Below, in pieces: positions 3,497 to 43,385 of a DNA stretch of 53,152 nt. Both the position numbers and the translations under genes were made by a program. The stretch's first letter is position 1; each line of letters begins with the position of its first letter. This stretch comes from a virus. The stretch lies in IMG/VR virus record IMGVR_UViG_3300029118_000008. One strand, 5' to 3'. The notes under the pieces are model-generated. The model was not told the origin of the DNA. It saw only the letters and a program-made list of their open reading frames with translations, and did no database searches.

Positions 3497-3910
3497 TCAC
3501 GGTTCGCCCTTTTCAGCATCCACCTTGTCCGCCATGCGCTTTAAGCTATCGCGTTCCCTGCGCTCCTGCCGCATCCGACGTTCCGCCTTCGCGGTGAGGT
3601 ACTCAACGTAGTTCATCGCTTCACGCACCACGTCATCCGGCGCGCCCATCAGCTTGGCGATAATCGCCTCGCAGGTTGCGTCGAGAATCGGGCGGTCAGA
3701 CGTTCCTTGCGGGTTGTCGGACAGTCCGCAAAGGTAGTCGGTTGTCACGCCGAGCGCTTCGGCGAACTTCACGATGCTGGTAATCTCCGGCGTGATGATT
3801 CCACGCTCATAGCACGAATACGTCGCTTGCGACACTCCAACGATGCTTGCCATTTCGGCTTGCGTCTTTTTTTTTGCCTTTCTCGCTTCCTTGAGCCTAT
3901 CTCCAAGCAT
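3497..3910 (-). CDS. CI-like XRE-family HTH repressor
   Basis: N-terminal LKEARKAKKKTQAEMASIVGVSQATYSCYERG HTH. C-terminal DDVVREAMNYVEYL tail shared with two paralogues. Divergent from a Cro-like gene. Confidence 0.8.
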   Translation of the reverse strand: MLGDRLKEARKAKKKTQAEMASIVGVSQATYSCYERGIITPEITSIVKFAEALGVTTDYLCGLSDNPQGTSDRPILDATCEAIIAKLMGAPDDVVREAMNYVEYLTAKAERRMRQERRERDSLKRMADKVDAEKGEP

Positions 3911-5195: not shown

Positions 5196-5997
5196 CATAA
5201 TATTGCGCGTACCTTGAAGAATGCGAAAACTGGACGCAAGCGTAAACGTCAGAATCGCCATAAAGCCAGAGCGTGACGTATTTTGCGCCGGTTGCATTGG
5301 CGATTTCGCGGCAGTCGATAACATAGCGGTCTGGTGCGGACGGACAAGAAGCATTCGGATTATAGTTGTCCAGCATCTTCCTGCAGTATTCGCCGGACAC
5401 GCTAATGTCGATACTCGGCTTGTCGTAGGGTTCGATGGATGAAATGGAAATCGAAAGCAGATTGACGTTATCGCCGCTGAACTTATCAACGATGTACTGC
5501 AAGTCCTCTTCGGAGTATCGTTCATCTGCAACCCAGTACGAAGTTTGCGCATTCGACGCAAATCGACCGTTGACCTGATGCGGCGTTCCGCCCTTGGAAG
5601 AAAACGCACAATACGCGCCGGAGGACGCGATAGCACTGTGGAAGTACGTTAAGCGCAAGTAGTAGCTGTCACTGCCGACAGAGGTGCGCATAAGCGAATC
5701 GACGGACGAAAACAGCTCGAAAATGTGAGCAAGAAGCTCCTGATATTCTGGCGAATAACTCTTGTAGAGCGATTCCAGAAGCATATATTCGCCCTTGATA
5801 ACAAAGCAGTTCGTTTCCGTGTCGAGCGAAACGTCGTAGGAAATGCCATCTTCTGGTTTGCTTGAGAAGAACTCATTGATAAAGTGCAAGGCAAGCATTT
5901 CGCCGTCGGTGAGGTCGCGTTTCTCGGTCGCAAGGGCGGGGGCAATGGAGAGTGTAAGGCAGCAAAGAACAAGCAGGACGGAAACAAACTTCTTCAT
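5161..5997 (-). CDS. Secreted protein of unknown function (moron in the lysogeny region)
   Basis: N-terminal signal peptide MKKFVSVLLVLCCLTLSIAPALA|TEK. No catalytic motif recognised. Confidence 0.65.
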   Translation of the reverse strand: MKKFVSVLLVLCCLTLSIAPALATEKRDLTDGEMLALHFINEFFSSKPEDGISYDVSLDTETNCFVIKGEYMLLESLYKSYSPEYQELLAHIFELFSSVDSLMRTSVGSDSYYLRLTYFHSAIASSGAYCAFSSKGGTPHQVNGRFASNAQTSYWVADERYSEEDLQYIVDKFSGDNVNLLSISISSIEPYDKPSIDISVSGEYCRKMLDNYNPNASCPSAPDRYVIDCREIANATGAKYVTLWLYGDSDVYACVQFSHSSRYAQYYVKDYRYLRIAP

Positions 5998-6578: not shown

Positions 6579-6622
6579 GCATACTCACCTCCATTCCTGC
6601 ATAGGATATGACTGCATAGCAA

Positions 6623-6841
6623 TCATTCCTGATTTTGAGGGAGGACGATTTCGCCGTGCTTGTCCTCATAGTCCGCGATATGCTGACGCATTAGCATCTC
6701 CAATTCGCGGTTGACGGTTCGCAGGTTTTTTTTCGCAACCACGCGGAACTTGTCAAGCGTCTGCTTGTCGGTGCGGAGCGTAAACTTCGGGAGGTCGGAC
6801 GGCAAGGGAATCACCACCTTCAAAAAAATTTCGGTCAGCAC
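6623..6841 (-). CDS. Ribbon-helix-helix (Arc/CopG-like) DNA-binding protein
   Basis: KFTLRTDKQTLDKFRVVAKKNLRTVNRELEMLMRQHI fits a beta-strand plus two-helix RHH pattern. The real start is probably the TTG at 6805, after AAGGTGG. Confidence 0.6.
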   Translation of the reverse strand: MLTEIFLKVVIPLPSDLPKFTLRTDKQTLDKFRVVAKKNLRTVNRELEMLMRQHIADYEDKHGEIVLPQNQE

Positions 6842-6842
6842 C

Positions 6843-6890
6843 TTGACAGCAAGGTGACGGCACTATATAATAAAAGAGAGGTGACGGCAC
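6843..6890 (+). promoter_or_regulatory. Perfect consensus promoter with two GGTGACGGCAC direct repeats (operator candidates)
   Basis: TTGACA at 6843-6848, N17, TATAAT at 6866-6871. GGTGACGGCAC at 6853-6863 (in the spacer) and at 6880-6890 (downstream of +1). Confidence 0.6.
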
Positions 6891-6891
6891 A

Positions 6892-7038
6892 ATGACGGCA
6901 GACAGCTGGAAAGTCACACTGCGAATGGGCGCGGGGCTTCATCGCAAGCTGCAAGTCCTTGCAGAGCGCGAAAACCGAAGCGTCAACCAGCAGATGATTC
7001 ACATCATCCAGCACGCCATTGAGGGGAGCGAGAAGTAG
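6892..7038 (+). CDS. Arc-like RHH protein, 48 aa (below the ORF-track size cut-off)
   Basis: My translation: MTADSWKVTLRMGAGLHRKLQVLAERENRSVNQQMIHIIQHAIEGSEK. Classic Arc/Mnt pattern (KVTLRM...LHRKL...AERENRSVN). Confidence 0.65.
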   Translation: MTADSWKVTLRMGAGLHRKLQVLAERENRSVNQQMIHIIQHAIEGSEK

Positions 7039-11231: not shown

Positions 11232-11912
11232 ATGGAAAACGGGCAGATTTACGCCGCAATCAGCGCGGCGATGGCGGACATTTCCGCAATCGGCAAGGAC
11301 AAGTACAACCAGCAGCAGGGTTTTAAGTTCCGCGGCATCGACGATGTGATGAACGCGCTGAAGCCAATTCTGACGAAGAACAAGATTTTCACCGTTCCGC
11401 AGGTTTTGGAGCAGACGCGAGAAATCAAGGTAACGGCGAAAGGTGGAGAACTGCGTTACAGCCTCCTCAAAATCGCGTTCCGCTTCTACACCACCGACGG
11501 GAGCTTTGTCGAGGCGGTGACGCTGGGCGAAGGCATGGACAGCGGCGACAAGGCAAGCAACAAGGCAATGGCGATTGCTTACAAGTACGCACTGTTTCAG
11601 GTCTTCTGCATTCCGACGGAAGAAATGACTGACCCGGACGGTGAAAGCTACGAAACAAAGCACGAGACGCAAAAAAAACCGGAGCAGCCGAAGCCGCAGA
11701 GCAAGCCAACAGAGAACCCGTCGGAAACGCCGACAAACTACATTATGCGCGAGTGCGGAAACATCGGCATGGATATGCAGGAGTTGGGCAGAGTTCGCGC
11801 CGCGCTTGTGGAAGCAAACATCGTCCGCAACATCCCGACGAAAGAAATGACGATGGCGGACGCAAAGGCGCTGATGGACGCGGTGAAGGCTAATTTCCGG
11901 GAGGCATCGTAA
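11232..11912 (+). CDS. erf: ERF-family single-strand annealing protein
   Basis: QQQGFKFRGIDDVMNALKPILTKNKIF...SNKAMAIAYKYALFQVFCIPT matches the ERF core. Confidence 0.8.
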   Translation: MENGQIYAAISAAMADISAIGKDKYNQQQGFKFRGIDDVMNALKPILTKNKIFTVPQVLEQTREIKVTAKGGELRYSLLKIAFRFYTTDGSFVEAVTLGEGMDSGDKASNKAMAIAYKYALFQVFCIPTEEMTDPDGESYETKHETQKKPEQPKPQSKPTENPSETPTNYIMRECGNIGMDMQELGRVRAALVEANIVRNIPTKEMTMADAKALMDAVKANFREAS

Positions 11913-35438: not shown

Positions 35439-36044
35439 ATGACGACTGGTCTTCGGGCAAGCACATTTGAGAACTTGCAGCTCAATGCCGGAATGTTTCT
35501 TGCAAACTTTGACTATTCCACCGCCACGGACGCGGCGACGCTGGGCGCGCTGCTGAAAACGGAGCGCGAAAAGACAAGCGGCTCTGCGCTGATTGGCGCA
35601 ACGCGCGGCGGCGGCACGTTCGTCTGCACGCCCAACACGCGCAGCATCGAAGCGGACGGCAAGCGCGAGGAATGGAAAGGCAGCAGCGTCAATGATGGCT
35701 GGACTATCAAGCTGACGACTACCCTGCTCGAAATCAATGCCGACAACCTTAAGCGTTCTTTCGGCACTGCCGACGTAACGGACACGGAGAAGAAGCACAC
35801 CATCAAGATTCGCACCGACATCAAGGATGCGGATTATATTGATAGCCTTGTTTGGGTTGGCGACACCTCGAAGGGCTATGTGCTGATTGCCATCAAAAAC
35901 GCGCTGAACACGGCGGGCGCAACGCTGACGTGGACGGACAAGGGCGAGGGCACTATCCCGGTGGAGTTTACCGCGCATCAGGATGGGCTTGAAACCGACG
36001 GATATGCACCTTGCGAGGTCATTTTCTTCGACCCTGCCGCCTAA
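35439..36044 (+). CDS. Major tail protein
   Basis: 201 aa, positioned before the chaperone pair and the tape measure gene. Confidence 0.65.
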   Translation: MTTGLRASTFENLQLNAGMFLANFDYSTATDAATLGALLKTEREKTSGSALIGATRGGGTFVCTPNTRSIEADGKREEWKGSSVNDGWTIKLTTTLLEINADNLKRSFGTADVTDTEKKHTIKIRTDIKDADYIDSLVWVGDTSKGYVLIAIKNALNTAGATLTWTDKGEGTIPVEFTAHQDGLETDGYAPCEVIFFDPAA

Positions 36045-36098: not shown

Positions 36099-36425
36099 AT
36101 GAATACCGCAACCGCATTTGAGCAGATGGCGAACGCTATTCCCTACATCGACAAGTTGGTAAACAGCAAGGAAATGAAAGCCTTTGTAGAAGAAAAGAGC
36201 AAGGGCGATGTTGTCGGACGCGACATCCTGATGAAGATGCTGCCGATTCTGTACGCCAAGCATCCCAAGGAAACGATGGGCATTCTCGGCGCCATGCACG
36301 GCAAGACGGCGGAGGAAGTCGCAGAAATGGACTTCACGGAAACCGCCGCCATGATGGACAAGGACACGCTCGATTCGCTGTTTGCTTTTTTTACCTTTGC
36401 GCTTCGTCTGGGGTGCATCATGTAA
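36099..36425 (+). CDS. Tail assembly chaperone (G-like)
   Basis: 108 aa, acidic, directly upstream of the tape measure gene. Contains the T7 slippery run. Confidence 0.7.
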   Translation: MNTATAFEQMANAIPYIDKLVNSKEMKAFVEEKSKGDVVGRDILMKMLPILYAKHPKETMGILGAMHGKTAEEVAEMDFTETAAMMDKDTLDSLFAFFTFALRLGCIM

Positions 36426-36712
36426 TCCCTGCGCTGTACAAATACCGCCCGCAAAACGTGCACGCGCTGGGGGTGCTTCTGGCGCACGAAACGCAGGAGG
36501 AAGCAAAACGTTGCTACATGGCTAATATGGCGTGGATGACGGTGCTTGCTATTTCGTCGTTCGGCGGCGCGAATCTGGAAATTCCGTCATACAGCGACGT
36601 TTTCGGCGAAGAGAAACATGAAACAAAGCAAAAAACAGCAGAGGAAATCTGCGACGATATTATAAACGGATTAATGGCGAGGGGAGGTGCAGAAGATGGC
36701 GGAAGCATTTGA
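36099..36712 (+). CDS. Tail assembly chaperone -1 frameshift product (GT-like)
   Basis: T7 run at 36386-36392. The -1 frame is open from there to 36712 and overlaps the tape measure start. Confidence 0.6.
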
Positions 36713-37413
36713 GTTGTACGCAAGTTTCAAGATTGATACAAGCGGCTACACGCAAGAGCTGAATAAAATCCGGCAGGAAATGCAGCAGTTTCAGCAGGAA
36801 CTCAACAGCCTTGCTATTCATCCGACGTTTGACGGCGGACGTTTCCAAATGGAATTGCAGCAAGCACAGCAGCAGTCCACGCAAGCGGCGGAGGAAATCC
36901 AGCGTTTGCAGCAGCAAATCCAGTCTTTGCAGCAAGCCGCAGACGGCGGCGGTTCTGGCGATTCGGGCGGCGGTGTGCTTAGCGGATTTTTGAGCCAACT
37001 CGATGTTATAGGTGATATTGCAAGCGGGCAGTTCCTTGCCAATATGGCAGTGAATGGCATCAATAGCATTATCGACGGCGTCACGGGTTCAATTAGCGAA
37101 TCAATCGGACTTGCGTCTGACCTTGTGGAGACGCAGAACGTTGTTGATGTGACGTTTGAGGATTCCGCGTCCACCATCAATAAGTGGGCGCAGGAGGCGC
37201 TGAACGCATACGGCATCACGGAAACCAAGGCTAAACAGTATTCGTCCACGCTGGGCGCTATGCTGAAATCCATGGGCATAGCGGATGACCAAGTTCTCCA
37301 AATGTCTATGGATATGGCGGGGCTGGCGGCGGATATGGCGTCTTTTTACAACCTCGACCACGACACGGCATTTGAGAAAATCCGCTCCGGCATTTCCGGG
37401 GAAACAGAACCGT
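36696..37413 (+). CDS. Tape measure protein, exon 1
   Basis: ...HDTAFEKIRSGISGETEP(L) is the conserved TMP core and breaks off at 37413. ATG at 36696 lies 8 nt after GGGGAGG. Confidence 0.8.
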
Positions 37414-38495
37414 TGATTTTAGCGGCTTAATGGAGAAATCCATTCTGAAACTGCTGGTGAACGCAAGCAAAAGCGGTGTGCATGAAAATGCGCTAACGGT
37501 AAAACTCTAAACTTGTTGAAAAGTTTGTGGATTTGTGATATAATACCTTTGAGGTGAAAAATTTGAAAGGTGTTATCTATCGCTATAATTCCCCAAGCGG
37601 AAAAATCTATGTAGGGCAAACAATGATTCTCGAAAGAAAGCGAATCGACAAGCATAAATTCGAGGCGTATACAAAGAAATGCAATACGCCGTTTGGAAAT
37701 GCGATTCGCAAGTATGGATGGGAAACAATCAGGGCAACATACGCAGTAATTGAACATGTCGAAGGGATAGACAAAAAGGACTTAAAAGCTAAACTGACGG
37801 AACGCGAAAACTATTGGATTCAAGAGCTTGATACATTCGTTCCCAACGGTTACAATGTAAAGCTGACAAATCAGCACACATTAGGCGAGTACCGGAATAA
37901 AGAAGCCATGTATAAGAAAATCAGCAACACGCTGAAAGGAAAATACATGAACCAGCCGTCTACGAGCAAACCAGTTATTGATGCAACCACAGGGATAACG
38001 TATCCGTCAATCAGCGAAGCAAGCCGCAGCACGGGCATATTCGTTCAATCAATATGCGGAGTGCTTAAAGGGAGATACCTTCACGCGGGCGGGCATCGTT
38101 TCTGCTACATAAAGGACGATGGAACACCCGACACGTCAAATCTTCGACAGAAAAGAAGAAAGCAACTGCCAGTGTATTGCCCCGAATTGGATAAATCGTT
38201 TGTTTCAGCCTATGAAGCAGCTAAGTATATTGGGCATCCGGACGGGAAAAACAACATACGCACTGCCGCGCAGACTGGTAAACAACGATATGGACTTACA
38301 TGGGTTTATAGCAAGCAAGACAATACCGTGCCAAGCCAACAATCATGACGCAGAAATGCGTCTTTTTTGTTGGAAGGTGTAACGACTAATTGTAGCGTCG
38401 AGATTAGCACGACGCGAAGTGCCAGCCGCCCCCCCGAAAGGGCGAAGAGATAGTCTAATCCCCTACAAAATATCGGGAAACCGAGGGTATAAATG
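37414..38495 (+). mobile_element. Group I intron (IA2/td-like core) carrying a GIY-YIG homing endonuclease
   Basis: U37413 pairs with G37422 (U-G) in P1 (ccgu/gcgg). P10 is gauuuua (37415-21) against uaaaauc (38496-502). The terminal nucleotide is G38495. P7-like gacua (38384-88) / uaguc (38451-55). Splicing restores ...EPLKSLGINMS... in frame. Confidence 0.8.
37554..38348 (+). CDS. GIY-YIG homing endonuclease (I-TevI-like) with two NUMOD/IENR-type HTH repeats
   Basis: GVIYRYNSPSGKIYVGQT...RIDKHK...ENYWIQELDTFVPNGYN. The start is probably the TTG at 37563, 6 nt after GAGGTG. Confidence 0.85.
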   Translation: MKNLKGVIYRYNSPSGKIYVGQTMILERKRIDKHKFEAYTKKCNTPFGNAIRKYGWETIRATYAVIEHVEGIDKKDLKAKLTERENYWIQELDTFVPNGYNVKLTNQHTLGEYRNKEAMYKKISNTLKGKYMNQPSTSKPVIDATTGITYPSISEASRSTGIFVQSICGVLKGRYLHAGGHRFCYIKDDGTPDTSNLRQKRRKQLPVYCPELDKSFVSAYEAAKYIGHPDGKNNIRTAAQTGKQRYGLTWVYSKQDNTVPSQQS

Positions 38496-41089
38496 TAAAA
38501 TCTTTGGGCATCAATATGTCCGTTGCGAACCTGAACGCCTTTGCCCTCGAAAAGGGCATGAACAAGGCGTTTGACAAAATGTCGCAGGCGGAACAAGCGA
38601 CGTTGCGCTATCAGTATCTGCTGGAAGCCACGAAGGACGCGCAGGGCGACTTTGCGCGAACCGGGGACAGCTTTTCCAACGAGATGCGCAAGCTGCAAAC
38701 CAACCTCGACCGCATCAAGACGGAGTTTGGCAAGGGGCTGCTGGGCGTTGTAACGCCCGCGATTTCGCTGCTTAACAACGTGCTGTCTGACAAGTCATAC
38801 CAGCAAACGGCAATCGAGAAAATCTATTCCGAACGCGACGAATCGCTGTTTGCTGCAGAAGTGGCATACCAGCGTTCGCTCACAATCGTTGATTCCATGC
38901 GGAGTATAGAGGATGAGAGCGGCGACGCAGTAAAATCCACGGAGGAATGGCGCGCCGCGCTGGAAGCCTTGAAAGACGTTATGCCGGGGTTGTCACAGTA
39001 CGTCGACCTTACAACTGATGCAATCATCGGCAACGATGAAGCCATACAGAATTACGTTGACACATTGCATGGTGTAACGAAATACAACAGCTACGACCAA
39101 GCGGTATCCGATGCGCAGAAAACGTATGATGATTTGCAGACGCAAATCGCGGAGACAGAAGCGGATATTGCAAAAAGGGAATTGCTCATTCAAAGCAGCG
39201 ACGAACTACAAAAACTATACGATAAGCGCGTAGAAGATGCATGGCGTACATACGCACAACGATATGGCTACGAGCCTGACTACCAAACGGCTCGTAATAT
39301 GCCATCAAGCGATGTGCGAAGTTATGCCTATGCAACCAGCACCGAAAATCCGTACGCCAATCTGGGAGGACTTGCCACAGGGCTGAACGCTGAACAAATT
39401 TACTATTTCGACCTTTTTAGAAACGCACAGAACGCCGCGAAAGACCCGCTTGCACAAGAAAAAGCGGAGCTTGAAAGCGAAAAGGAAGAACTTGCAGAGC
39501 TTGTTCCGCAAGCCGAAGCAGCGGCAGTCGCGCTGGACGATGTAAAGAAAAGCCGGGAGGAATATGTAAATAGCCCGGAAGGGCGCAAGGCAAAACTAAA
39601 TTCCGACTTCAAAGCCGCCGTTGACGCAGAGAAGAAAGCCCTCGAAGACCTTAAAACCACGCTGAAAGACGTGGATACCTACCGCGCGGACACGCTGAAA
39701 AAGGCGCAGGAAGCCTACAAGGGCGTTGCGTCTGGCATGGGCTACATGGTAACGCACACGCAGGAGGAAATGAAGAAGCTCCTCGATACCGATTACAGCA
39801 AGGAAAACGTGCTTAGTTGGTACGGCACGAATGCGGATGCGCTACACGCCTATAATGATGCTTTGCAGCAAGCCGAAGCTGCTGGCGTTGACGTTGGCAT
39901 CTTGTCAGGGCTTACTACATACTCCCGCGACAACGATGCGTACCTTTCGCGTCTGCTGAACCTAACGCCGGACGAAATCAAGCAGCTAAATGCAGACTAC
40001 CAGCGCGCCCGCGACGAAGAAAACGCGATGGCGGAAACCAAAACGCGGTATACGCTGGCGGACGATGAGACGTATCAGGCGATGCTGGAAACCGTGCAAA
40101 AGTCGCTCGAAGCGTTTGAGCAAAAGGACGCAATCGCGGCATACATGGCGGAAAATAACAGCGCGGTTTTGGCTGGCATCAACACAATGCGCAAGACGCT
40201 GGAAGCAGAAATTCCGGGCATCAATGCGCTTCTCGAACAGTTGGGGTTAAAGCAAATTGATTACGAACTGAAAGATAAGCCGTGGATATCCGATTACTTC
40301 GTTCGCGGAGATGCTGACCAGCGAGAAGAAGATATTGCGCACGAAAAAACAGCCCCGACGCTAAAAGAGCAAGCGCAATCACGCCGCGCCCGCGAACAGG
40401 CACGAGCGCGAAGCGGCTATGCGGACATGATTGAAGATGGGCTAATGCCCGACGACATCAAAGCCCGCGCGCAGCGGTGGAATCGGCTTGTCGAGATGAA
40501 GACGCAGGAGATGAACGACATCGTTGATATTTTGGAACAGCGCATGGAGGAAAACCAGCGTCAGCGTGAAGCCGCAGAAGCGGAGCAGTGGAATAATCGA
40601 GCAACAAAAGACATGCCGCCACTGTATATGATGGACACGATTATTGCCAACGAAGCGCACCCTAAATTTGTGCCGAATACATACATCGGCGCACCTTCGA
40701 GCGAACAGCAAGAAAAAACAACGGGCGGCAATTTTTTCTCCGCCATCGAAAGCGCCATTGATGCTGCAAAAGAAATCGAAAGTAGAACGATACAGGAAGG
40801 ATTTGTAACGCAGTCTATCTTCAATACACTTGGAGAAATGATGGAGAACTACAAGGAAAGCCTAAAAAACAACAGCGCACCAAACATCTTCAGCAATGGC
40901 GACGGCGTTCTTTTTGTGCAAGTAACAAACCCGGACGAAATTGCGAACGCTGTTTCTGGGCTTCCGCCAACAACCATCAATAACACATTCAGCGTTGACG
41001 GCAAAACCGTCGCAACGGCGGTTGCACCTATCGTCAACAAAATAATCGGCAGGGGCATCCGTGGAAATCTGATGGAGGTGGCGCGATAA
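38496..41089 (+). CDS. Tape measure protein, exon 2
   Basis: (L)KSLGINMSVANLNAFALEKGMNKAFDKMSQAEQATLRYQYLLEATKDAQGDFARTGDSFSNE continues the TMP core. Exon 1 plus exon 2 total 3312 nt, or 1103 codons plus stop. Confidence 0.8.
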
Positions 41090-41854
41090 ATGGTAACGCG
41101 ATACCGCGCGTGGATGGGGGAAGAAGCGCTGGAAGACCTCGACCCGTCCATCATCATCATCGACATTTCGGAGGACGCGCCGAAGGAAGCAGTGACAACC
41201 GAAGCACGCCCGGGCGGGGGGATGTACCTCACCGGGCAGCTTCGGCAGTCCATCACGGTAACAATTGCCGTTGAGATTCACGAAGCAAACACCATCCACA
41301 GGCAGCTTGTTCTCAGTAAAATCATGCGCTGGGGCAACGGTGGACAGTACCTGCGCACGTCATACCGCCCGGAACAGCGATTATACATCGACAGCATCGA
41401 GGCAGCGAGTGTTTCCGCGCTCAAATGGACGGACACGCTGGCAATCAAGTTGACGGCATATCAGCGTCCGTGGTGGGAGGAAGCAACTGTTTCCAAAATG
41501 GAAACAGTTGAAGCAAGCAAAAGTGGCATCCTGACGGTTTACAATCGCGGGGACGTGGCGTGTCCGCTTGAAGCGGTTTTTGTGGCAATCGACACGCTGA
41601 CAAACGTTGAAATCAGTTGCGGCAACGAAAAAATCGCGCTGACGAACATCAGCGTGAAAACAGGCGAGGAAATCCGCATAGGACACGACGATAACGGCAT
41701 CCAGCAAATCACGGCGGCAGGGCAATCCGCAATGGGAAACCGAAACGGGCAGTCCGCCGACGAAATCACGCTAAAACCCGGAATCAATAAGGTGTCGTTC
41801 AGCGGCGACGGGCTTTTGTCGCTGACAGTCACTGCGAGGGGGCGAAAATATTAA
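41090..41854 (+). CDS. Distal tail protein (Dit-like)
   Basis: 254 aa immediately after the TMP (TAAATG). Confidence 0.6.
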   Translation: MVTRYRAWMGEEALEDLDPSIIIIDISEDAPKEAVTTEARPGGGMYLTGQLRQSITVTIAVEIHEANTIHRQLVLSKIMRWGNGGQYLRTSYRPEQRLYIDSIEAASVSALKWTDTLAIKLTAYQRPWWEEATVSKMETVEASKSGILTVYNRGDVACPLEAVFVAIDTLTNVEISCGNEKIALTNISVKTGEEIRIGHDDNGIQQITAAGQSAMGNRNGQSADEITLKPGINKVSFSGDGLLSLTVTARGRKY

Positions 41855-41930: not shown

Positions 41931-43385
41931 GTGGAAAATCCCACTGGTTGGCAGATGGAGGTCGGCTATCCAACAATCGGGAGAACAAAGGTCACTTTTC
42001 CGGTTGTTCTTCCAGCCGACGCAGTAATCACCTCCGCACGAGTACACGCAGATTTTCGGCGCGACCTTTGGGGCAATCAACAAAAGCAGGACGTAAACGA
42101 TGTACACGTTGACGAGGCAGGATTCGCAACAGTAACACTTCCTGACGGGGCAAGCACCGTATCCCTTATTGTAACACTATCCTTTCAAATGTGGGAAAAA
42201 GTTTACACTGATACGGTTGAACGGACTTTTAACGTAGACGTCCGCGACATCTACCTCACAATCGACTATGTTTCCGGCATCATCCCCGACCCAGACGCAA
42301 GCAAAGCATACACCAACAACGTCCGTTTGCCGCGTCTTCTGGACAAAAATCTGCGAGAAATCAAGCGCTTGCGCCCGTCTTCGCTTTCTTTGTCGCTAAC
42401 AATCGACGACATCTCCACCGCAAGCATGACGCTCGTGGACGGCACATGGATGGACGCAACGCAGTTTGTGGAACTGTACCACATCGGCGGCAGCGTCGGC
42501 ATCTTCCGCTTGCGCTCTGACACACAGACTTATAGAAATTACGCGACGCAGGAAGTCAACCTCGACCATGCCATTTCAACACTGATGGACGGGCTTCTCC
42601 CGGAGCAGCTAAAAATCGGCAGCGCATCCGTTGACGCGGTTGACGTGCTGGCGCAACTTCTCACCTACCAGCCGGAAACGCGCTGGCAGATGGGAACGTG
42701 CGAGCTATCGCAGCATCTCACATACGATTTCGACGCAGGGACGAACATCTGGACAGCAATCAACAACGTCAAGAACTTGTCGCCCGCAGAAATGATGTGG
42801 CAGTACGACTTTTCCACTCATCCGTGGACGCTCAACCTCGTTAATATGCCAAATACCGTCTCCTGCGAAGCGCGTTTTAACGGCGCGCTAACCAGCGCAA
42901 CTGTCAGCACCGACCGCGACGACCTTGTGACCCGGATGTACGCATACGGCAAAAACGGCATCACCGTTGGCACTGTAAACGATGGCAAGGACTACATCGA
43001 CGCGGACACCATCGAAGAGTGGGGCATCGTATGCGGCAAATACTCCGATAACAGCATCACGGACAAGGAAACGCTGTTGGAAAACGCAAAGAAGGAACTG
43101 GCGAAAAAGAAAACCCCGCCGATTTCCATCGACGTTTCCCTTGTGGAGCTTTCCGCCATAACAGGATTGCCCTACGACCATTTCCGGCTTGGGAGCATCT
43201 GCCGGGTTGCAATGCCTAAATTCGGGCGCTGCTATGATGAGCGCATTCTCACGCTTAACGCGGACAACGTACTGCTTGAGCCGCAAAAGGTACAAGTCAC
43301 CATGTCCACGGAGGGCAAGAGCGTCAGCGGCATCATCGAGGCGCTGGGCGGCAAGAGTGGACTTATTTCCGCAGGAACGGAATAA
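41931..43385 (+). CDS. Tail tip / tail-associated protein (Tal-like)
   Basis: 484 aa after Dit. GTG start is uncertain because the frame is open upstream to ~41841. Confidence 0.6.
   Translation: MENPTGWQMEVGYPTIGRTKVTFPVVLPADAVITSARVHADFRRDLWGNQQKQDVNDVHVDEAGFATVTLPDGASTVSLIVTLSFQMWEKVYTDTVERTFNVDVRDIYLTIDYVSGIIPDPDASKAYTNNVRLPRLLDKNLREIKRLRPSSLSLSLTIDDISTASMTLVDGTWMDATQFVELYHIGGSVGIFRLRSDTQTYRNYATQEVNLDHAISTLMDGLLPEQLKIGSASVDAVDVLAQLLTYQPETRWQMGTCELSQHLTYDFDAGTNIWTAINNVKNLSPAEMMWQYDFSTHPWTLNLVNMPNTVSCEARFNGALTSATVSTDRDDLVTRMYAYGKNGITVGTVNDGKDYIDADTIEEWGIVCGKYSDNSITDKETLLENAKKELAKKKTPPISIDVSLVELSAITGLPYDHFRLGSICRVAMPKFGRCYDERILTLNADNVLLEPQKVQVTMSTEGKSVSGIIEALGGKSGLISAGTE

Follow-up and report, generated by a model that had tools for sequence, protein, structure and literature searches.

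How is the tail-length ruler of a phage made when its gene breaks off in the middle of its most conserved motif and resumes 1082 nucleotides (nt) later in a different frame? This question is raised by the virus record IMGVR_UViG_3300029118_000008, of which the whole stretch of 53,152 nt was analysed (hereafter, the window). Its gene for the tail length tape measure protein is interrupted by an insert that holds a GIY-YIG endonuclease gene. We consider it very probable that this insert, 37414-38495, represents a group I intron of the IA type, which is common among Firmicutes phages, that it carries a homing endonuclease gene, and that its removal by splicing is needed for the tape measure to be made. 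In this phage lineage, the tail-length ruler would then be makeable only after RNA splicing. The features on which this reading is built are the following.

36696-37413, + strand: tape-measure exon 1, from ATG 36696 and ending in U37413
37414-38495, + strand: predicted group I intron, 1082 nt
37410-13 (ccgU) / 37422-25 (Gcgg), + strand: helix P1, with the U37413-G37422 wobble at the 5' splice site
37415-21, + strand: P10 guide, the P1 loop GAUUUUA, exact reverse complement of UAAAAUC at 38496-38502 (7/7 pairs)
38496-41089, + strand: tape-measure exon 2, whose first 7 nt, UAAAAUC, are the P10 partner of 37415-21

The interrupted gene and its alleles

The longest open reading frame (ORF) over exon 1 runs from GTG 36687 to 37430, with ATG 36696 as an alternative start. 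It ends ...FEKIRSGISGETEPL, followed by ILAA and a stop, which stands in frame five codons into the intron in the unspliced RNA. The motif picks up at 38496, in a different frame, as KSLGINMSVANLNAFALEKGMNK. When U37413 is joined to U38496, a frame of 3312 nt (718 + 2594) is open from ATG 36696 and encodes 1103 amino acids (aa). The ligated message would read ...GAA CCG U/UA AAA UCU... (the slash marks the junction), giving E-P-L-K-S-L-G in the protein, and the exon-joined junction sequence is ...GAACCGTTAAAATCTTTGGGC... The spliced protein matched PHROG 1535, 'tail length tape measure protein', with E 1e-43 in a single stretch (residues 19-335) that spans the junction, and PHROG 8462 with E 1.4e-21. 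The G+C content is 43.8% in the 1082-nt insert, as compared to 51.6% in the exons.

A protein search with the 255 residues around the junction returned 418 relatives. The protein P0001, from the intron-less allele on contig L004, is 98% identical and uninterrupted, reading ...SGISGENEPLKALGINMSVANL...; many relatives at 50-65% identity read ...GETEPLKQLGINMSVANL... without a gap, and more distant uninterrupted tape-measure proteins carry ...SGISGETEPLKQLGINMSVANL... At the DNA level, the joined exons gave a gap-free alignment with L004, whose intron-less site is ...GAGCCCTTGAAGGCGCTTGGC... As placed by these alignments, the interruption is precise to a single base relative to uninterrupted tape-measure genes, and it falls in the most conserved tape-measure motif without overlap or duplication. 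A sequence-only reading of the window had claimed a tape-measure gene split by an intron, with U37413-G37422, GAUUUUA/UAAAAUC and G38495, the final intron base, as boundary marks and a 3312-nt spliced ORF, and had pointed to intron-less relatives as a comparison; on each of these points it was borne out.

L004 is the only near-identical intron-less allele among the relatives found. A protein-based scan of reference genomes came no closer than uninterrupted tape-measure genes of 45-46% identity, which belong to Faecousia and Oscillospiraceae metagenome-assembled genomes, and the exon-intron junction had no exact match in representative bacterial genomes. Of the 14 mismatches between the joined exons of the window and L004 (over 135 nt), 10 are no more than about 20 nt away from the insertion point, and the P1/P10 complementarity is lost in L004 (about 770-800, compared with window 37395-37413 and 38496-38510). 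This cluster of mismatches may mark a co-conversion tract or a site resistant to cleavage. On L004, a 2.6-kb Logan contig, the tape-measure gene was called in three pieces, and frameshifts or assembly errors are possible there.

Three allelic states were observed at the site, namely no intron, an ORF-less intron and an endonuclease-bearing intron, and boundaries and guide are identical in the introns. Viral contigs were scanned with a pattern of the 3' core, which yielded at least 120 stretches. An ORF-less insert of 267-268 nt, at the same base of the same gene and with the same end bases, is carried by four contigs (L023, where it occupies 935-1201, L043, L046 and L065), and the endonuclease-bearing form, of 1081-1082 nt, is found at the same site in L086 and L094. 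P1 and the guide are identical in six alleles. A conserved ORF-less insert in the best-conserved motif of an essential gene would only make sense if it were removed from the RNA. Taken together, the three states show, as in a snapshot from nature, how homing elements cycle between gain and loss in uncultivated gut phages.

ORF-less and endonuclease-bearing alleles differ by one block, from L5a (the loop of helix P5a) through P6a, corresponding to window 37518-38373. In the ORF-less form the P5a loop is CCAAU and P6a is CCGUC/GACGG; in the endonuclease form the gene is present and P6a is CCAAC...GUUGG. The difference is not a clean ORF insertion, and the P6a stem of the window equals that of an intron in the Staphylococcus phage PH15 (DQ834250). 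This block suggests exchange of a ribozyme-plus-gene module between introns.

The interruption also affects annotation. After gene calling, what is left of the tape-measure gene is a 241-247-aa 'hypothetical protein' and an 861-aa orphan, with an endonuclease between them. In the junction search, about 35 clusters with 82-99% identity end at 56% coverage of the query; these, at least 35 in the public collection, appear to be exon-1 fragments of such intron-bearing genes.

Proposed ribozyme layout and covariation

The P, Q, R and S elements were placed by comparison with the three introns of Twort orf142 (I1-I3), with the introns of CS266P3 and EF1, in which the ORF lies in P6a, and with 30-odd further relatives. 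The resulting layout is listed below, hp1 and hp2 being two hairpins between P3 and J3/4.

37429-34 / 37439-44, + strand: P2 hairpin aaugga-GAAA-uccauu, with a U-A to C-G compensatory change in L023 and L086
37453-59 / 38420-26, + strand: P3 gcuggug / ugccagc, supported by covariation
37462-64 / 37473-75, + strand: hp1 cgc/gcg
37480-83 / 37488-91, + strand: hp2 gcau-GAAA-augc
from the stretch 37492-37517, ahead of P4, + strand: J3/4 gcuaa, by alignment with relatives
37496-501 / 38324-29, + strand: P4 acggua / uaccgu, covariation
either side of P5, + strand: J4/5 aaa and J5/4 caa, joining P4 and P5
37506-08 / 38318-20, + strand: P5 ucu / aga, covariation
37512-17 / 38310-15, + strand: P5a cuuguu / agcaag, by alignment with relatives
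38330-31 / 38377-78, + strand: P6 gc / gu, invariant in the sample
38336-40 / 38369-73, + strand: P6a ccaac / guugg, covariation; encloses a terminator-like hairpin
within 38377-38388, + strand: J6/7 gua, then the P7 5' strand acgacua, of which gacua 38384-88 pairs with uaguc 38451-55
38384-88 / 38451-55, + strand: P7 gacua / uaguc, the same strands as in Twort I1-I3
38395-400 / 38410-15, + strand: P7.2-like hairpin gcgucg / cgacgc, between P7 and P3', covariation
38427-31 / 38440-44, + strand: P8 cgccc / gggcg, covariation
between P8 and the P7 3' strand, in the stretch 38420-38455, + strand: J8/7 aagaga
38461-63 / 38485-87, + strand: P9 ccc / ggg, in a 3' end that is 80-94% identical in more than 250 phage records
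38474-83, + strand: GAAA-capped P9 tip cgg-GAAA-ccg

In this layout P4-P6 is enclosed by P3, and the crossing of P3 with P7 makes the group I pseudoknot. With its flanking J6/7 and J8/7, P7 reads GUAACGACUA ... AGAUAGUCU, and its paired bases equal those of Twort I1-I3. The strings that the sequence-only reading had likened to a P7 core are indeed at this place, taacgactaa at 38380-89 and agatagtct at 38448-56. The P9 tip, AUCGGGAAACCGAGGG, is nearly invariant across the intron family, and between alleles at the site of the window P2 occurs as AAUGGA/UCCAUU and, with both strands changed, as AACGGA/UCCGUU.

Covariation was examined in a MAFFT alignment of 20 sequences (A1), which the window entered as 37430-37521 joined to 38310-38490, the ORF loop being excised. 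In A1, 93.6% of the cells were paired, as compared to 72.7% after shuffling (0 of 500 shuffles as high) and 34-41% when the partner strand was slid, and both sides change in 34 of the 54 pairs. P3 and P4 were paired in 100% of cells, with 4/7 and 4/6 pairs, respectively, changed on both sides. All pairs covary in P6a (5/5; 95.7% paired), P7.2 (6/6; 81%), P8 (5/5; 85%) and hp2 (4/4; 97.3%), and 4/5 in hp1 (89.5% paired). The covariation in A1 thus supports P3, P4, P5, P6a, P7.2 and P8, including the P3/P7 pseudoknot topology. In another test, based on fixed sequence anchors in 32 distinct relatives, cognate strands paired better than non-cognate ones for P3 (6.84 vs. 4.8 of 7 pairs, with 25 distinct duplexes), P4 (5.91 vs. 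4.85 of 6) and P6a (4.47 vs. 2.34 of 5). That the core helices follow the group I order and the P3/P7 pseudoknot topology is therefore supported, at the level of sequence, by covariation in 20-32 relatives.

The hairpins hp1 (37462-75) and hp2 (37480-91) are separated by a conserved GGUGU. They occur at the same place in L001, L003, L002 and most IMG/VR loci of A1, and are absent from the Twort introns. To our knowledge, two hairpins between P3 and J3/4 do not figure in descriptions of IA2 introns, and a literature search for named helices between P3 and P4 ('P3.1', 'P3.2') gave nothing relevant. The mark of the IA2 type, the phage type, is a pair of extra helices, P7.1 and P7.2, between P7 and P3'. 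In this interval the window has one covarying hairpin (38395-415), and PH15 and most relatives have two.

An arrangement in which acggua/uaccgu would be a P6a closing the ORF loop, with hp1 and hp2 as a miniature P4-P6, was dropped after the comparison with Twort, CS266P3 and EF1; on that comparison, acggua/uaccgu is P4 and the endonuclease ORF lies in L5a. A P3 formed with the 3' strand of hp2 was also rejected, having 4-5 pairs only, as compared to the 6-7 covarying pairs with the upstream strand. The single-sequence minimum free energy fold of the ORF-less allele recovers P2, hp2, P4, P5, P5a, P6, P6a and P7.2. The pseudoknot is not representable in such a fold, in which P3' is mispaired, and the z-score is only -2.46.

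The endonuclease cassette and the weighing of explanations

The gene within L5a and its putative signals are arranged as follows.

37516-21, + strand: -35 TTGAAA, promoter-like, in L5a
37539-44, + strand: TG-extended -10 TATAAT, at 17-nt spacing (11/12 matches over 37516-44)
37551-57, + strand: Shine-Dalgarno GAGGTGA, with the same layout in PH15
37563-38348, + strand: GIY-YIG homing endonuclease gene, 261 aa from TTG 37563; the longest ORF starts at GTG 37554
38347-62, + strand: terminator-like hairpin gacgca-GAAA-ugcguc, 6 pairs, nested in P6a
38363-68, + strand: U6 tract following the hairpin

TTG 37563 is the more likely start of the endonuclease, because GTG 37554 falls inside the Shine-Dalgarno sequence and PH15 has the same layout, with the same -10 box and Shine-Dalgarno sequence followed by an ATG. 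The protein matched Pfam GIY-YIG (PF01541) with 26.0 bits, above the cutoff of 22.6, and PHROG 7168, 'homing endonuclease', with E 2.7e-11. Its N-terminal 99 residues aligned with the catalytic domain of I-TevI (1LN0) with E 8.5e-4, and VIY, YVG, ERENYWIQEL and NGYN stand opposite the I-TevI motifs. The GIY-YIG motif, the Shine-Dalgarno sequence and the -10-like box that the sequence-only reading had assigned to the intron ORF are present, and the terminator that it had named corresponds to a terminator-like hairpin plus T6. Of the two NUMOD-like repeats that it had also named, one is detectable (PF22083, residues 149-183); the other had no Pfam match and no BLASTP similarity to the first.

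The terminator-like hairpin overlaps the last two bases of the endonuclease stop codon. The hairpin and U6 are also found in PH15, in the L009 family and in the ORF-less L014, and the ORF-less allele L023 lacks both. For its last 13 codons (SKQDNTVPSQQS-stop, 38310-38348), the endonuclease gene is read from P5a', P5', J5/4, P4', P6 and the start of P6a, and this stretch is predicted to be under double constraint, as coding sequence and as ribozyme core.

The late transcript would fold as a ribozyme, in which the internal guide would form P1 with the last bases of exon 1 and P10 with the first bases of exon 2. An external guanosine held in P7 would attack after U37413, the freed exon 1 would attack after G38495, and the ligated message would encode one 1103-aa tape-measure protein. 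The stop five codons into the intron would end translation of unspliced RNA. L5a would be a self-contained cassette consisting of promoter, Shine-Dalgarno sequence and GIY-YIG gene, followed by the terminator-like hairpin in P6a. The endonuclease would cleave the same conserved motif in alleles without the intron, when phages co-infect a cell or a phage meets a prophage, and repair of the cut allele would copy the intron in (homing).

Several points weigh against this proposal. P1 has 4 pairs only, and the two hairpins between P3 and J3/4 are outside the textbook group I core. In A1, P6, P7 and P9a are invariant and P9 varies in one cell only; P7 and P9 were fixed by the pattern used to collect the relatives, and covariation is uninformative for both. 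The match to TIGR01453, 'group I intron endonuclease' (E 3.4e-14, 53.4 bits), lies just under its cutoff of 56.05, as does that of the NUMOD-like domain (25.5-26.9 bits, cutoff 27). The terminator-like hairpin with U6, if efficient, could stop transcription into exon 2, in which case the expression of exon 2 and of the distal tail genes would depend on read-through. We infer splicing, self-splicing, endonuclease activity, its target, homing and the use of promoter and terminator from the DNA sequence. Finally, the group I covariance model of Rfam, RF00028, gave no match in the whole window at the gathering score, in 37300-38600 at E up to 10, or in the 3' part, and the ORF-less allele L023, with 17.7 bits, stays below the gathering score of 50 bits, which is a criterion of detection and not a biological definition.

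The sequence-only reading had named the covariance search as a check on the group I assignment, and the lack of a group I core in it as a refuting outcome. Formally this outcome holds for the window itself, and the controls mark it as a false negative. RF00028 also misses the annotated intron of PH15 and those of EF1 and CS266P3, all of which bear ORFs, and Twort I1-I3 score 63.6, 97.4 and 100.9 bits. The ORF-less L023 is aligned over its full length (E 0.025), with P1, P2, P3, P7, P8 and P9 placed as in the comparative layout, and five further ORF-less members of the family (L017, L058, L076, L069 and L040) are aligned over their full length with 32.3-42.9 bits (E 1.9e-4 to 1.3e-7). Since the model misses PH15 and scores ORF-less members at full length, the miss in the window is a problem of sensitivity. 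RF00028 recognises the intron family significantly, yet under the gathering score. The remaining signal is removed by the 800-nt loop. Hp1 and hp2 are probably behind the low scores, and the P4-P6 alignment of L023 is confused by them. These misses imply that a common family of phage introns is under-detected, and the same concern applies to Bacillus phages, for which the RF00028 and GISSD models were found in 2025 to be weak on introns with nuclease loops (PMC11878797).

Three other explanations have to be weighed against this proposal. A free-standing homing endonuclease gene might have split the tape-measure gene, which would then be unspliced, with two polypeptides that assemble. Such gene-splitting by free-standing endonuclease genes is known from T4-like phages, the gene has its own promoter-like site, Shine-Dalgarno sequence and terminator-like hairpin, and an Rfam intron match is lacking in the window. 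However, related phages carry the 267-nt ORF-less insert at the same base and with the same ends, and a free-standing nuclease gene does not account for such an insert. The non-coding flanks also show conservation, with covariation that fits a group I fold, no Shine-Dalgarno sequence stands ahead of the first possible start in exon 2, TTG 38504, and the break lies inside the most conserved motif with neither overlap nor duplication. We therefore regard this explanation as extremely improbable. The insert might instead be a group I intron by descent that has lost splicing or splices too poorly, in a defective prophage with a dead tape-measure gene. The short P1, the terminator-like element within the intron, the temperate nature of the element (integrase at 1096-2253), given that prophages decay, and the three pieces in which the gene is called on the near-identical intron-less contig would all fit. 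Against this, the core helices of the window are all intact where the family shows compensated changes, both exons are open across 1103 codons, the endonuclease ORF and its catalytic motifs are intact, and the same gene with its intron is represented in dozens of protein clusters and on numerous viral contigs about 50 kb long; a dead intron is, in our opinion, very improbable.

The last alternative concerns the manner of splicing, which in vivo might need a helper protein of the host or the phage (maturase or chaperone), perhaps due to hp1/hp2 and the 800-nt loop. Many group I introns need protein helpers in vivo, and this family departs from the RF00028 consensus. On the other hand, the phage group I introns tested so far (T4, SPO1 and Twort) self-splice in vitro, nothing in the window points to a maturase, and, as far as we know, GIY-YIG enzymes are not maturases. 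Dependence on a helper appears unlikely, more probable than the two preceding explanations and well behind the main proposal. As judged from the sequence, the call was correct, the element being of a known kind and the phage lineage new, and the understanding of how such elements work is unchanged by it. The element is mildly unusual for the covarying hp1/hp2, for the under-detection of a large family by Rfam and for a terminator-like hairpin nested in P6a ahead of tail genes.

Relatives in other phages and the surroundings of the gene

The closest sequence relative found is the intron in the large terminase subunit gene of PH15, whose coding sequence is annotated in two joined pieces; the intron between them contains a GIY-YIG gene, 'SegB'. 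Window 38316-38493 is 70% identical to it over 178 nt, in a stretch that lies within the terminase gene and shortly behind 'SegB'. The two introns share the same order of elements, with P1, P2, P3, two hairpins, GCUAA-P4, P5 and a P5a that holds TATAAT, GAGGTGA and the GIY-YIG gene on the 5' side, and the Q element, P6a CCAAC/GUUGG with hairpin and U6, P7, P3', P8, P7' and P9 on the 3' side. The endonucleases are 26% identical (E 4e-16). PH15 differs in its host gene and guide sequence, in having both P7.1 and P7.2 hairpins where the window has one, and in its ORF, which stops ahead of the core, whereas that of the window runs through P4' and P6 into P6a.

The Twort orf142 introns I1-I3 are of the IA2 type, and I2 is the crystallised Twort ribozyme. 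Since orf142 is now annotated as a tail tube protein, they are, like the window intron, group I introns in a phage tail gene. Their P7 strands, ACGACUA / UAGUC, are identical to those of the window, and their Q-P6-R, GCCAAGCC..GGAAGGUG.AACGACUA, is very similar. They differ by having no hairpins between P3 and J3/4, another P9, and 63-101 bits on RF00028 as compared to 17.7-43 for the window family; the 225-290-nt stretches matched by RF00028 are too short for an endonuclease gene. I-TevI, from the T4 td intron, resembles the window enzyme in its N-terminal GIY-YIG catalytic domain, which can be aligned at the conserved Tyr, Tyr, Glu and Asn motifs, and in the linker and C-terminal DNA-binding region, putative in the window enzyme, behind this domain; either gene is carried within a loop of such an intron. 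The I-TevI gene sits in P6a and the window gene in L5a, the identity is low (E 8.5e-4), and the putative DNA-binding part of the window enzyme is NUMOD-like (I-HmuI type).

Introns in tape-measure genes have been described in Bacillus cereus-group prophages (TMP-IVS1, IVS2 and IVS3a/b). They occupy three sites, belong to types IA1 and IA2, and only some of them have an endonuclease gene; where one holds a GIY-YIG gene, a homologous one holds an HNH gene (Tourasse and Kolsto, 2008; PMC2504315). The window shares with them the kind of host gene, the IA type, the occurrence of forms with and without an endonuclease and a P1/P10 adapted to the site; by description, it differs in belonging to a gut Oscillospiraceae-type phage and in that a single site shows the three allelic states. 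In cluster J mycobacteriophages, introns interrupt capsid and minor-tail genes (PMC3706429), and terminase introns are known from LL-H and Moonbeam.

In a blastn search against GenBank phages, the matches fell on the insert only, except for one weak match to exon 1. The last 50-60 nt of the intron recur with 80-94% identity in more than 250 records, from phages of Staphylococcus, Enterococcus, Listeria, Bacillus, Lactobacillus and Clostridium, as the end portions of inserts within terminase, nrdD and DNA polymerase genes. By these similarities, the window intron RNA is homologous to annotated phage group I introns. The endonuclease gene is in L5a in the window, PH15, L009, L010, L042, L060, L066, L087, L100, L104, L122 and L124, and in L6a in CS266P3, EF1, L031, L045 and L093. 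The at least 120 viral contigs and more than 250 GenBank phage records that share the 3' core may, quite tentatively, be taken for a large phage-borne IA-like clade that would form its own structural subclass, set apart by hp1/hp2, the P9 tip and an endonuclease gene in L5a or L6a, kept below the Rfam threshold by its architecture and unannotated in viromes; the terminator-like hairpin nested in P6a in one sub-branch, to which the window, PH15, the L009 family and L014 belong, might then be a timing device. We consider this wider proposal rather doubtful.

Other members of the family were seen close to the same site. In L014 (- strand, intron end near 3570 in reverse coordinates) the intron stands at ...GETESL/KDLGVVMTQ, and in the L009 family (L009, L019, L025, L063, L073, L082, L095, L103 and L107) four codons further on, after ...KDLG. 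From these positions, the tape-measure motif looks to be a hot spot for this intron family.

The tape-measure gene is preceded by the major tail protein gene (35439-36044) and followed by Dit (41090-41854) and a Tal-like gene (41931-43385); integrase, DnaB, terminase, portal and capsid genes are found elsewhere in the window, and tRNA genes were searched for in the window and not found. The tyrosine integrase (1096-2253, - strand; PHROG 1, E 7e-64) shows that the window is a temperate element; it belongs to a siphovirus, probably with gut Oscillospiraceae as host. Between the major tail and tape-measure genes are two short overlapping ORFs, 36099-36425 and 36413-36712, in the usual slot of the programmed-frameshift pair of tail assembly chaperones; neither had a PHROG match.

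Multiple group I introns within a few kilobases were observed on several viral contigs as RF00028 or pattern matches.

L076, RF00028 matches: 5666-5958, 6616-6906 and 11412-11594
L058, RF00028 matches: 756-1009 and 1462-1872
L040, RF00028 matches: 1061-1330 and 1432-1691

On L041, two matches to the 3' core pattern were found.

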